From Escherichia phage vB_Eco_Jura, in sequence record LR999871: a stretch of DNA of 64,000 nt; one strand, given 5' to 3'. The translations under genes and the position numbers were made by a program. This document shows positions 60,712 through 64,000 of the stretch, piece after piece; positions within the stretch are counted from its first letter, which is position 1; the number at the start of each line of letters is the position of its first letter. A model generated the notes under the pieces. That model did no database searches. It was not told the DNA's origin and saw nothing but the letters and a program-made list of their open reading frames with translations.

Positions 60712-61239
60712 ATGCAACTGGGTGAAAAACAAATCCGTGAAATGACTAATAGTAGTGAACTGGTTCAGGAATTATTCTTAGCCGAGTTACGTCGGCTAGA
60801 TAAAGTACTGGATAGTATCATTACACGTAATGGGGAAACATTCGCTGTATACAACTCAACAGGGTTCCTGTATTTAGGGGAGTTCTATTCGAGTTCCCGT
60901 TCATCACAACAACCCCCTTCTGGTCATCGTCTGGCTCTAGCTAATCACCTACTGGATGATATGCGGGAGTATCTGGAACAAGCAGGTAAACTTCTGCTAG
61001 AAGTCCATATGGTAAATCAGATGGTCTTTCGTCTGGTTCAGGGCTGTAAGACTTATCAAGACGTTCGTGATGCATTGCCAGAATGCCTCATTGCTATGGA
61101 TAAACAGGGTCATCTGAAATCCTTACAGAGAACCAGAAAGGCAGCATTTACTCTGGATAATGATGCTATGGCTCTCCGTCAGTATGAGAAAATCTTACCG
61201 ATTATCGAATACTATGCGGGAACCCATCTTATCTTTTGA
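60712..61239 (+). CDS. Hypothetical protein, 175 aa
   Basis: ORF between helicase and polymerase. Confidence 0.55.
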   Translation: MQLGEKQIREMTNSSELVQELFLAELRRLDKVLDSIITRNGETFAVYNSTGFLYLGEFYSSSRSSQQPPSGHRLALANHLLDDMREYLEQAGKLLLEVHMVNQMVFRLVQGCKTYQDVRDALPECLIAMDKQGHLKSLQRTRKAAFTLDNDAMALRQYEKILPIIEYYAGTHLIF

Positions 61240-61246
61240 GGTCTGT

Positions 61247-63211
61247 ATGCGTCACATTACATTCAACAATGAGGGTATCTACCCTATTGCTATCCTTACT
61301 ACAACGTTACGTAAGGATGATATTGTCAAAGCATACATGGAACCCTGGGATGTAGATAAAGATTCAGTAATGATTCTTGAACTTCATACAGCCCCAGGGA
61401 AAAAGAAAACTCCTGCTAAAGAGATGCAGGAGTTTATTACCCAAGAATTAGTGCCAGCATTCGAAGCAGCACAAACTCAGTATATCATCTGTGGTGATTC
61501 TGAATATTACAAACAGCTAACCAAACAAGGTAAAGCTGATGCCAATATTGGCTATGTAATGGATTGTGCTTATGGGAACCAGAAAGTTATTTACGTTCCC
61601 AATTACAGACAAATCTTTTATGACCCGGATAAGGTAAAGACTAAGATTGCTTTATCTATGCAGGCTCTGATTGATTATGTCTCTGGTTCTTATGTTGAGC
61701 CAGGAACTAAGATTATCCACTATGCTGATTATCCATTAACTCCAGAAGCTATATCTAAGTGGTTAGATAAGTTACTGGAGATGAATGTTCCGTTAGCAGT
61801 GGATATAGAAACTTTCAGTCTGAAGCATTATGACTGTGGTATAGGCACTATTACATTCTGTTGGAACAAGCATGAAGGGATAGCATTCCCTGTGGATTAT
61901 GAACCAATTGAGGGGGCTACTGAAGCTCCTTATGGTAGACAAGTTCACAACATGCTTGTTCGTTCTATGCTCAGGGACTTTTTTATTAAGTATCTGAACA
62001 GGCAGATGTATCACAATATTGCCTTTGACGTATATGCACTCATTTACCAGTTATTTATGACAGACCTTCTGGATACGGAAGGGTTGTTGCATGGCATGAG
62101 TATCATGCTAAGAAACTGGGATTGCACTAAGTTAATTACCTATCTGGCCACTAATTCTTGTGCTGGTAATAAGCTAAGTCTTAAAGACCAGGCTCAGGAA
62201 TATGCTGGTAACTATGCTCAAGAAGAAATCAATGACATTACCAGAATCCCATTAGCAGAGTTGTTGGAATACAACTTAGTGGATGGATTATGTACCTGGT
62301 ATGTCTATGAAAAGCATTGGGATACTCTGGTTAATGACCAACAGTTAGATGTTTATACAAACATCTTTAAACCTGCATGTGAAGATATTATTCAAATGCA
62401 GTTAACTGGTATGCCTATCAATATGAAGACAGTATTGGAGGTAGAAGAAGCATTAACCCAAGACTATAACAATGCGTTAAAAACGATTGCTGACAGTAAA
62501 GTAATCAAAGATTTTACCCGTCTTCTTAATGAAGAATGGGTAGAAAAACAGAACCAGATTCTGAAGAAGAAACGAGTAACTTTAGCTGATGCTAAAGAGC
62601 AGTTTAATCCAAACTCAGGTGTTCAATTACAGAAGCTACTTTTTGAGTTCCTGGAGTTACCTGTGCTGGGTCTGACTGCAAGTAAACTACCCGCTACTGG
62701 TAGTGGCATACTCAAGTCTTTGAAGAACCATACTCAAGATGCCAGTATTCTGGAAATTCTTGATGCTCTGATTGATTACAAAGCTGTAGATAAAATTCTG
62801 ACAGCATTTATTCCAGCATTAAAAAATGCCAGACAAGGACCAGATGGTTGGCATTATCTCTTTGGTAATCTGAACTTAGGTGGGACTGTATCAGGTCGTC
62901 TATCCAGTAGTGAACCAAACCTACAGAACCTACCTTCTGGTTCCAGATATGCCAAGATGATTAAGAAATGCTTTGAGGCTCCCCCTGGGTGGATATTCTG
63001 TGGGCTAGACTTTGCTTCTCTCGAAGACCGTATATCTGCTTTAACAACCAAAGACCCTAACAAGCTGAAGGTGTACATGGGTGTGACTGTTTATACAGTT
63101 ACTATAGAAGGAGTTGACCATCATATCCGAGATGATGATACAATCGTTTATGATGGTAAAACTTATACCGGTGAGGAGTTCTATGACGCTTTTACCCGTG
63201 GCCTTCTATGA
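61247..63211 (+). CDS. DNA polymerase (family A), N-terminal part: 3-prime-5-prime exonuclease domain through motif A
   Basis: Exo motif LAVDIETFS; Pol A motif A LDFASLEDRI near C-terminus; ORF stops at 63211 before motif B; start MRHITF with GAGGT RBS. Confidence 0.8.
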   Translation: MRHITFNNEGIYPIAILTTTLRKDDIVKAYMEPWDVDKDSVMILELHTAPGKKKTPAKEMQEFITQELVPAFEAAQTQYIICGDSEYYKQLTKQGKADANIGYVMDCAYGNQKVIYVPNYRQIFYDPDKVKTKIALSMQALIDYVSGSYVEPGTKIIHYADYPLTPEAISKWLDKLLEMNVPLAVDIETFSLKHYDCGIGTITFCWNKHEGIAFPVDYEPIEGATEAPYGRQVHNMLVRSMLRDFFIKYLNRQMYHNIAFDVYALIYQLFMTDLLDTEGLLHGMSIMLRNWDCTKLITYLATNSCAGNKLSLKDQAQEYAGNYAQEEINDITRIPLAELLEYNLVDGLCTWYVYEKHWDTLVNDQQLDVYTNIFKPACEDIIQMQLTGMPINMKTVLEVEEALTQDYNNALKTIADSKVIKDFTRLLNEEWVEKQNQILKKKRVTLADAKEQFNPNSGVQLQKLLFEFLELPVLGLTASKLPATGSGILKSLKNHTQDASILEILDALIDYKAVDKILTAFIPALKNARQGPDGWHYLFGNLNLGGTVSGRLSSSEPNLQNLPSGSRYAKMIKKCFEAPPGWIFCGLDFASLEDRISALTTKDPNKLKVYMGVTVYTVTIEGVDHHIRDDDTIVYDGKTYTGEEFYDAFTRGLL

Positions 63212-63728
63212 ACAACGGTATAAGATTTCCGATGAAGGTTTCATCTTAAATCTTGCAAACAATCAACCCCTAAAACCGACTCTCAATCCTAACGGATACC
63301 TTAAGGTTGGGTTAGCTAATGGGGATGGTACACATCACCAAGAGCTACTTCATATTCTGGTAGCTAAACACTTCATCCCTAATCCTTATGGCTATGAACA
63401 GGTGAACCATAAAGATGGTAATAAACTGCATTGTCATAAGGATAATCTGGAATGGTGCTCTGCTACTCAGAATGTTGAACATGCACTTAAAACAAGGCTA
63501 CGTCCTGGTTACATGTCTGCTGACGATAAAGAAAAGTATCTCTTTGAGGTGCTGGCGGGTAAGCAAGTTAAAGACATTGCTTTTGAAATAGGTAGACGTC
63601 CTGAAACTTTGCATAAGATGCTCAGAACTACTGCTGACCGACTTGGTGTTCGAAATGAGTGGGATGATGTTATGAGGAGAAATAGAAAAGATGTTGCTTT
63701 ACGACAGCTTGCCAAAATCAACTCATGA
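63183..63728 (+). CDS. HNH homing endonuclease interrupting the DNA polymerase gene
   Basis: YEQRYKISDEGFILNL N-terminus and VNHKDGNKLHCHKDNLEWCSATQN HNH motif; GAGGAG RBS before ATG 63183 (track ORF extends to 63114). Confidence 0.8.
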   Translation: MTLLPVAFYEQRYKISDEGFILNLANNQPLKPTLNPNGYLKVGLANGDGTHHQELLHILVAKHFIPNPYGYEQVNHKDGNKLHCHKDNLEWCSATQNVEHALKTRLRPGYMSADDKEKYLFEVLAGKQVKDIAFEIGRRPETLHKMLRTTADRLGVRNEWDDVMRRNRKDVALRQLAKINS

Positions 63729-64000
63729 CTTCACTGGCAAGAAAATTGACAACGTAGTCAAAGCCGGGAGTTCATCAGGTTACGATGGGCATAGTCTTCG
63801 TGCATATGCTTACTTCGGTGAGATGATGCCCGACATTAAAGATACGGTAGAGTCTGTTAATTCTATTCAGGAGAAGTACAAAGCATATCGTCAGGATTCT
63901 AAAGCACCTACCTTTGCTCTTACCTATCAGGGTACGTACATCACTTTGATGAAGAACTGTGGTTTCCCTGAACAGAAAGCTCGAATGGTTGAGGAACGTT
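63691..64000 (+). CDS. DNA polymerase (family A), C-terminal part beginning before motif B (partial, runs off window)
   Basis: Frame open from 63676 to window end; DGHSLRAYAYFGE and motif B RQDSKAPTFALTYQG; possible ATG 63691 with GAGGAG 11 nt upstream. Confidence 0.7.
   Translation, partial: MLLYDSLPKSTHDFTGKKIDNVVKAGSSSGYDGHSLRAYAYFGEMMPDIKDTVESVNSIQEKYKAYRQDSKAPTFALTYQGTYITLMKNCGFPEQKARMVEER

Follow-up and report, generated by a model that had tools for sequence, protein, structure and literature searches.

We have analysed a stretch of 64,000 nt from Escherichia phage vB_Eco_Jura (LR999871; the window) and have found that its family A DNA polymerase gene, the counterpart of gp39 of phage N4, is interrupted by a mobile cassette with an HNH homing endonuclease gene. 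Very probably this cassette was copied into gp39 and is not removed from the RNA; one mRNA would then give three proteins, with the polymerase made as two non-covalently assembled chains. Both halves of the polymerase gene are intact open reading frames (ORFs) with their own stop and start signals, and these are conserved across copies of the cassette. In addition, the parts of the insert that flank the HNH gene are selected as codons in the frames of the host gene, which disfavours an RNA that is spliced out. They encode conserved extra peptides of 44 and 29 amino acids (aa), which belong to the mobile cassette and had gone unnoticed in a first-pass annotation of the window.

Interruption of the polymerase gene

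The window belongs to an Enquatrovirus. The region is 99.5% identical to phages AlfredRasser (Bas69), AL25 and SPSP, 99.2–99.3% identical to VEc25 and PMBT57, and 97.7% identical to N4. We place the true start of the polymerase at 61247 (MRHITF). The N-terminal polypeptide, gp39N, matches the Pfam family DNA_pol_A (E=1.9e-25, profile positions 12–180 of 381) and includes motif A (LDFASLEDRI, 63005–63034). In the alignment it is colinear with N4 gp39 up to codon Y610. From there on, 701 nt of the window (63077–63777) replace six N4 bases, ACCGAT (codons T-D), between KLKVY and GYDGHSLRAY. At the 3' edge the window has the codons SS where N4 has TD; since more distant copies retain TD before GYDGH, the inserted DNA proper should be 63077–63771. 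That is, the cassette measures 701 nt if the diverged SS codons are counted and 695 nt otherwise. The insertion point therefore lies between N4 gp39 codons Y610 and T611, in the interval of motifs A and B, at the surface where palm motif A joins the fingers.

The first-pass annotation had described a polymerase ORF that stops after motif A, a second frame that opens at 63676, contains motif B and runs off the window, a complete HNH gene with its own ribosome-binding site, and a possible ATG for the downstream part with GAGGAG 11 nt upstream. All of these have been found again in the sequence (Table 1), with the stop codon at 63209–63211 and motif B (RQDSKAPTFALTYQG) at 63889–63933. The frame change that it noticed follows from the length of the insert, as 695 is 2 mod 3. 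Its limits of the interruption, 63076–63730, had to be revised to those of Table 1 by alignment to the uninterrupted N4 gene.

The C-terminal polypeptide, gp39C, is cut off by the end of the window. In AlfredRasser its full length is 276 aa, including motif C (THIHDAQYF). Motif A is in gp39N and motif C in gp39C, and thus the two metal-binding Asp motifs are on different ORFs.

Table 1 Features of the interrupted polymerase gene in the window
Feature	Position	Strand	Basis
gp39N, N-terminal DNA polymerase polypeptide, 654 aa (exonuclease, thumb, palm motif A)	61247–63211 including stop	+	ORF list
Mobile cassette, 695 nt, absent from phage N4, between KVY and TD (SS in the window)/GYDGH	63077–63771	+	N4 alignment; 8 diverged copies
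N-extension, 44 extra codons ending gp39N (MGVTVYTVTIEGVDHHIRDDDTIVYDGKTYTGEEFYDAFTRGLL)	63077–63208	+	codon-position bias, conservation, protein search
Shine–Dalgarno sequence GAGGAG of the HNH gene, within the GEEF codons of the N-extension	63173–63178	+	read from the sequence
HNH homing endonuclease gene, free-standing, 181 aa (NUMOD4 + HNH_3, I-HmuI-like)	63183–63728 (ATG 63183, TGA 63726–63728)	+	Pfam, PDB
Shine–Dalgarno sequence GAGGAG of gp39C, inside the HNH coding sequence, 11 nt 5' of ATG 63691	63674–63679	+	sequence
gp39C, C-terminal DNA polymerase polypeptide, incomplete at the window end; 29-aa leader, then GYDGH	63691–64000	+	sequence; start position kept in 8 cassettes
C-extension, 29-aa leader of gp39C (MLLYDSLPKSTHDFTGKKIDNVVKAGSSS)	63691–63777	+	sequence

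Three overlapping reading frames with their own translation signals

The whole 695-nt cassette is covered by three overlapping ORFs in three frames, and no base of it is non-coding. The overlap of the HNH gene is 29 nt with gp39N and 38 nt with gp39C. Its product scores above the gathering cutoffs of two Pfam families, HNH_3 (26.1 bits, cutoff 24.8) and NUMOD4 (23.8, cutoff 23.4), and matches I-HmuI in the PDB (1U3E) over residues 6–103 (E=8e-10). The HNH ORF is uninterrupted in all eight cassettes that we compared, and its ATG is kept in the context TTCTATGA in the window, in Klebsiella phage Pylas and in two metagenome contigs (L011 and L012). As read from the sequence, the HNH gene has its own translation start and ribosome-binding site and is very probably not embedded in an intron or an intein.

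The start of the C-terminal polymerase fragment is kept as well. In eight of eight cassettes, the motif (A/G)(A/G)GGAG is located 10–11 nt 5' of the ATG or GTG of gp39C, despite the fact that the HNH residues encoded at this place differ (RR, KE or RE).

Conserved extension peptides under codon-level selection

We have counted substitutions in the first 105 nt of the insert, i.e., the part 5' of the HNH start, according to codon position in the polymerase frame. The counts at first, second and third positions are 0/3/12 between the window and phage SP5M, 1/1/9 between the window and phage Pollock, and 1/3/17 between Pollock and SP5M. In the same frame, the synonymous and non-synonymous codon changes are 10:4, 9:2 and 14:5 for these three pairs, while the other frames give ratios of about 1:11. 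A third-position bias is also found in the last 48 nt of the insert in the frame of gp39C, where it is weaker than in the first 105 nt. Judging from these substitution patterns, the extensions are under codon-level purifying selection in the polymerase frames.

At the protein level, the N-extension follows the consensus VY.G..VY.V.I.G..HHIRDD..I.YDGK.YTG..FY, in which 14 columns are invariant when 12 sequences of 53–83% identity are compared; these sequences share the invariant motif HHIR.D..DG..TG..FY. A search of 1.84 billion representative proteins with the N-extension returned 34 matches. The 31 genuine ones, in proteins of 42–688 aa, all end no more than 7 residues from the C-terminus. 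The two extensions would give the tryptic peptides DDDTIVYDGK, TYTGEEFYDAFTR, STHDFTGK and IDNVVK.

An AlphaFold2 model of gp39N alone, built on the 12-sequence alignment, has a mean predicted local distance difference test score (pLDDT) of 82.9. In this model, the tail (residues 611–654) is predicted as four short beta strands and a helix with pLDDT of 63–78, and the adjoining palm segments 542–557 and 586–610 are below 50. Such low values in the palm would be as expected for a half-enzyme modelled without its partner. The C-leader, from its alternating residue pattern, looks like a two-strand beta hairpin.

An 8-bp inverted repeat, CCATCATA...TATGATGG (63118–63125 and 63149–63156), coincides with the HHI and YDG codons, which are invariant in the N-extension, ~30 nt 5' of the HNH start. 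It is kept in five of seven copies and is broken without compensation in L012 and Pylas. It could modulate translation of the HNH gene, or it could be a coincidence.

Recurrence and mobility of the cassette

Eighteen phage GenBank records, of four genera, have the cassette at the same codon. Besides the Enquatrovirus members, the carriers include Pollock (Pollockvirus), SP5M and PD205 (Gamaleyavirus), Pylas (Pylasvirus) and four metagenome contigs. Among the eight diverged copies its length is 689–695 nt, always 2 mod 3. On the other hand, the cassette is absent from the close relatives N4, OLB145 and 3HA13, which have ~98% flanking identity.

The identity of the cassette between phages disagrees with that of the polymerase exons around it. 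Between AlfredRasser and Pollock the exons are 66–68% identical and the cassettes 90.5%; between Pollock and Pylas the exons are 80–82% identical and the cassettes 68.7%; and between Pylas and metagenome contig L010 the exons are 63–65% identical and the cassettes 98.3%. On this disagreement, we regard the cassette as mobile, and it appears to behave as expected of an active homing element. The segments that encode the extensions move with it, co-varying with the cassette rather than with the exons. In comparison with N4, the 130 nt upstream of the junction contain a cluster of 10 single-nucleotide polymorphisms (~7.7%, versus ~2% elsewhere in the gene), a weak hint of a co-conversion tract.

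The occurrence in so many records and contigs excludes an assembly error or a decaying pseudogene, the two outcomes under which the first-pass annotation would have withdrawn its proposal. For such an artefact there is the interruption itself and nothing further. Eighteen viable phage isolates, each sequenced independently, share this structure with several metagenome contigs; the three ORFs are all intact and show purifying selection, and gp39 is apparently the sole polymerase seen in these genomes. We thus consider this explanation practically impossible.

Intron or split polymerase

The first-pass annotation left open whether the interruption is a group I intron or a split of the polymerase. 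Of these, the split is supported by the intact ORFs, the selection on them, the kept ribosome-binding site and start codon, and a precedent in another phage. In the G7C-like phage 10Gb, an HNH insertion in g39 gave no spliced product in reverse-transcription PCR (RT-PCR), and g39 gave two recombinant polypeptides, which were confirmed by matrix-assisted laser desorption/ionisation (MALDI) mass spectrometry, with a Shine–Dalgarno sequence and an ATG inside the insertion (bioRxiv 10.1101/542787, 2019). The likeness to the window is close: an N4-like phage, a family A gp39, an HNH ORF in an insertion of ~0.7–0.8 kb, and the signals for the C-fragment inside it. Also, SP5M and PD205, which are of the same genus as G7C, carry a cassette of the window type. 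The preprint differs from the present case in that it does not describe conserved extension peptides, transfer of the cassette from one genus to another or three-piece polymerases.

If the insert were a group I intron, it would be removed from the mRNA and one full-length polymerase would be made. The homology of the HNH protein to the intron-encoded I-HmuI agrees with this. So does a pair of candidate splice sites, U63078 (5') and G63770 (3'), which restores the frame as KVY-I-SS-GYDGH, though the pair was picked by eye and such pairs are expected by chance. However, searches with the Rfam 15 model Intron_gpI have found no match at E<=10 in 62500–64000, and neither the whole window (at the gathering score) nor five related loci (at E<=1) gave one. 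While a ribozyme core needs ~200 nt, the insert has zero nt outside ORFs, and its flanks evolve as codons in the polymerase frames. The covariation term of RNAalifold on the 5' part of the insert is +0.76, which is unfavourable, and the sole conserved stem, the inverted repeat described above, is broken in L012 without compensation. The insert as a whole does fold with z=-5.25, yet this value is not distinctive, as the polymerase exons reach -3.6 to -7.6 in a sliding-window control; since the exons fold more strongly than the insert, we have dropped the z-score as evidence. Together with the negative RT-PCR of the analogous 10Gb insertion, these results make an intron unlikely.

Several points weigh against the split reading. 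The GenBank records of AlfredRasser and Pylas annotate the polymerase as a two-piece join, as for an intron. The negative Rfam result is weak when taken alone, because Rfam also missed the insertion in g16 of the same preprint, which does splice. The 10Gb insertion has been likened to the cassette of the window by its description, not by its sequence. Furthermore, we infer that the chains associate and that the tails act as adaptors, and the evidence for this phage itself comes from sequence and predicted structure.

Regarding the join annotations, the intron boundaries were set via comparative genomics and not by experiment, according to the paper on the collection that contains AlfredRasser. 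In the records of VEc25, SP5M and Pollock, two polymerase coding sequences (CDSs) and an HNH gene are annotated, and the record of PD205 leaves the HNH gene unannotated. One element is thus annotated in conflicting ways across MZ501049 (L002), MH899585 (L008), MW175414 (L003), MT682708 (L005) and KM236242 (L004), and a split polymerase would settle this inconsistency. The element itself is already in GenBank. Apparently new here are two findings: the cassette takes conserved extension peptides along with it, and metagenomic relatives have polymerases in three polypeptides.

As a separate observation on folding, the polymerase coding sequence at 61150–62724 is far more stable than its dinucleotide shuffles (the exon z-scores above, in 350-nt windows), exceeding both the neighbouring helicase gene and the insert.

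Origin of the extension peptides

Two other explanations concern the extra peptides. They might be an insertion domain that is native to some N4-like polymerases and was bisected by the HNH gene. Lineage-specific insertions do exist in relatives, such as one of ~55 aa in Vibrio phage MS02, but the latter precedes motif A and is unrelated to the extensions. Among the matches listed, most other Schitoviridae polymerases cover only 63–64% of the probe (~360–370 nt), with the extensions excluded, and no uninterrupted polymerase or other protein with an internal copy of the N-extension was found among the 1.84 billion representative proteins. As the extensions also co-vary with the cassette and not with the exons, we find a native domain very unlikely.

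The extensions might also be the halves of a very small or degenerate split intein that was fractured by the HNH gene, in which case trans-splicing would ligate gp39N and gp39C. The 'fractured genes' with split inteins have the same gene order (N-piece, free-standing endonuclease, C-piece), and by our own reading by eye, THDF and HHIR...DG...EF in the window superficially recall intein blocks F and B. However, the N-extension begins with M, V, I, L, T or Q, with no conserved Cys or Ser, and the C-extension has N, S, R, M, K or Q before the T/S at its end, with no conserved terminal Asn. Likewise, THDF is not conserved, being TLDI, TIEI, TVEI or RLEI in relatives. The extensions sum to ~73 aa, about half of a minimal Hint domain (~130 aa), and no Hint or intein family was matched in Pfam at E<=10, nor was any intein among the PDB profile matches. 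A split intein is hence extremely improbable.

Proposed mechanism

Under the split reading, an I-HmuI-type HNH gene and two short flanking coding segments would have been copied into gp39 between Y610 and T611. The cassette would stay in the RNA, and one mRNA would be translated into gp39N, the HNH enzyme and gp39C through overlapping and probably coupled frames. The first product (654 aa) would contribute the exonuclease, the thumb, the Asp of motif A and the 44-aa tail; the second (181 aa) would be the HNH enzyme; and the third (276 aa) would contribute the 29-aa leader, motif B of the fingers and the Asp of palm motif C. We expect gp39N and gp39C to assemble non-covalently, giving an active site from two chains, and the tail and leader most likely form a small beta module between the chains that joins the halves. 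In a mixed infection, the HNH enzyme would nick or cut cassette-free alleles such as that of N4, and repair would copy the cassette in. Its putative target is in N4 gp39 around AAGGTGTATACCGATGGTTAC, AAGGTGTAT/ACCGATGGTTACGATGG, a cleavage specificity that we infer.

More tentatively, and with slightly more doubt than confidence, we propose that the cassette is a three-part mobile unit (tail segment, HNH gene and leader segment) in which tail and leader are matched adaptors that re-join the bisected enzyme non-covalently. If this is true, homing endonuclease genes would have, next to self-splicing introns and inteins, a third means of offsetting the cost of their insertion into an essential gene. 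The adaptors would also account for the tolerance of N4-like polymerases to two or three insertions and for their operation as enzymes of three chains. A family A polymerase with its two catalytic carboxylate motifs on separate polypeptides would be a natural split-enzyme design, and the tails may be reusable as heterodimerisation tags.

Comparison with known systems

Replication enzymes that are split by free-standing homing endonuclease genes are a known kind of 'genes in pieces'. Petrov and Karam reportedly described a split gp43, a family B polymerase, in some T4-like phages of Aeromonas, and phage Aeh1 is said to have a split NrdA created by the mobE HNH gene, as reported by Friedrich and co-workers in 2007. 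The window resembles these cases in that an essential replication enzyme is divided by a free-standing homing endonuclease gene and its two polypeptides are functional, with function in the window predicted from the sequence. The enzyme family and the site are different, and in the window motifs A and C are put on separate chains and conserved tails of 44 and ~29 aa are added.

Endonucleases of the same family are found in the group I introns of the DNA polymerase genes of SPO1 and SP82 (I-HmuI and I-HmuII) and in the polymerase introns of T7-like phages and cyanophages (for example I-PfoP3I, PMC3428280), which share with the window the family A polymerase as host gene and the conserved motif region. 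Those endonucleases lie inside a self-splicing ribozyme, whereas the window has no detectable ribozyme and the insert sequence that flanks its HNH gene is all coding.

The 'fractured genes' with split inteins (Dassa et al. 2009, PMC2677866) have a layout that is similar to ours: a host N-part with a tail, an endonuclease gene, and a leader with the host C-part, the tails being part of the mobile unit. The tails of the window, in contrast, lack every intein catalytic residue and have half the size of a Hint domain, and the halves of the polymerase presumably stay together with no ligation.

Polymerases in three pieces and further observations

Metagenomic relatives bear further insertions before motif A, in L011 inside the conserved motif SSS.PNLQN/(L/I)PS upstream of motif A. 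In two contigs, the polymerase is in three polypeptides, of 595, 116 and 289 aa in L010 (3580–7700) and of 571, 141 and 274 aa in L011 (396–4479), and two endonuclease-type ORFs lie between the pieces. Motif A is on the tiny middle piece, both ends of which bear extra peptides. The N-terminal leader of the upstream cassette in L010 (MQDLLNKLVSIK...) is common to an SP5M-like polymerase (P0001). Homologue searches with short queries returned only short proteins, and three-piece polymerases are therefore over-represented among the results, which give no measure of their frequency. Such recurrent splits at several conserved motifs, into up to three polypeptides, indicate the extent to which a core replication gene can be broken up by homing endonucleases while the phage stays viable.

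Two irregularities have been observed in the C-fragment of other metagenomic relatives. In L012 (7236–7283, identical in L013 and four further contigs), a 48-nt insert is located in motif B between APTFALT and YQGTY. Within this insert, a TGA follows immediately in frame; there are also a perfect GC-rich hairpin of 13 bp (GATGCCCCCGGGG-ATT-CCTCGGGGGCATC) and, just 5' of the Tyr codon, another in-frame stop codon (TAA). The site has no endonuclease gene. This layout recalls the bypass in T4 gene 60, though matching take-off and landing codons were not seen in it; alternatively, it may be a third split that drops the Tyr of motif B, or a tiny mobile hairpin element. In L014 (7230–7250), one extra base directly after the APTF codons of motif B (ACTTTTCGCCCTTACT) shifts the frame. 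A similar shift is found in an unrelated metagenome protein (P0031), and either sequencing errors or a frameshift site that recurs could be the cause.

Finally, four clustered tRNA genes are located near the left end of the window, at 212–887 (Rfam tRNA, 50–77 bits).

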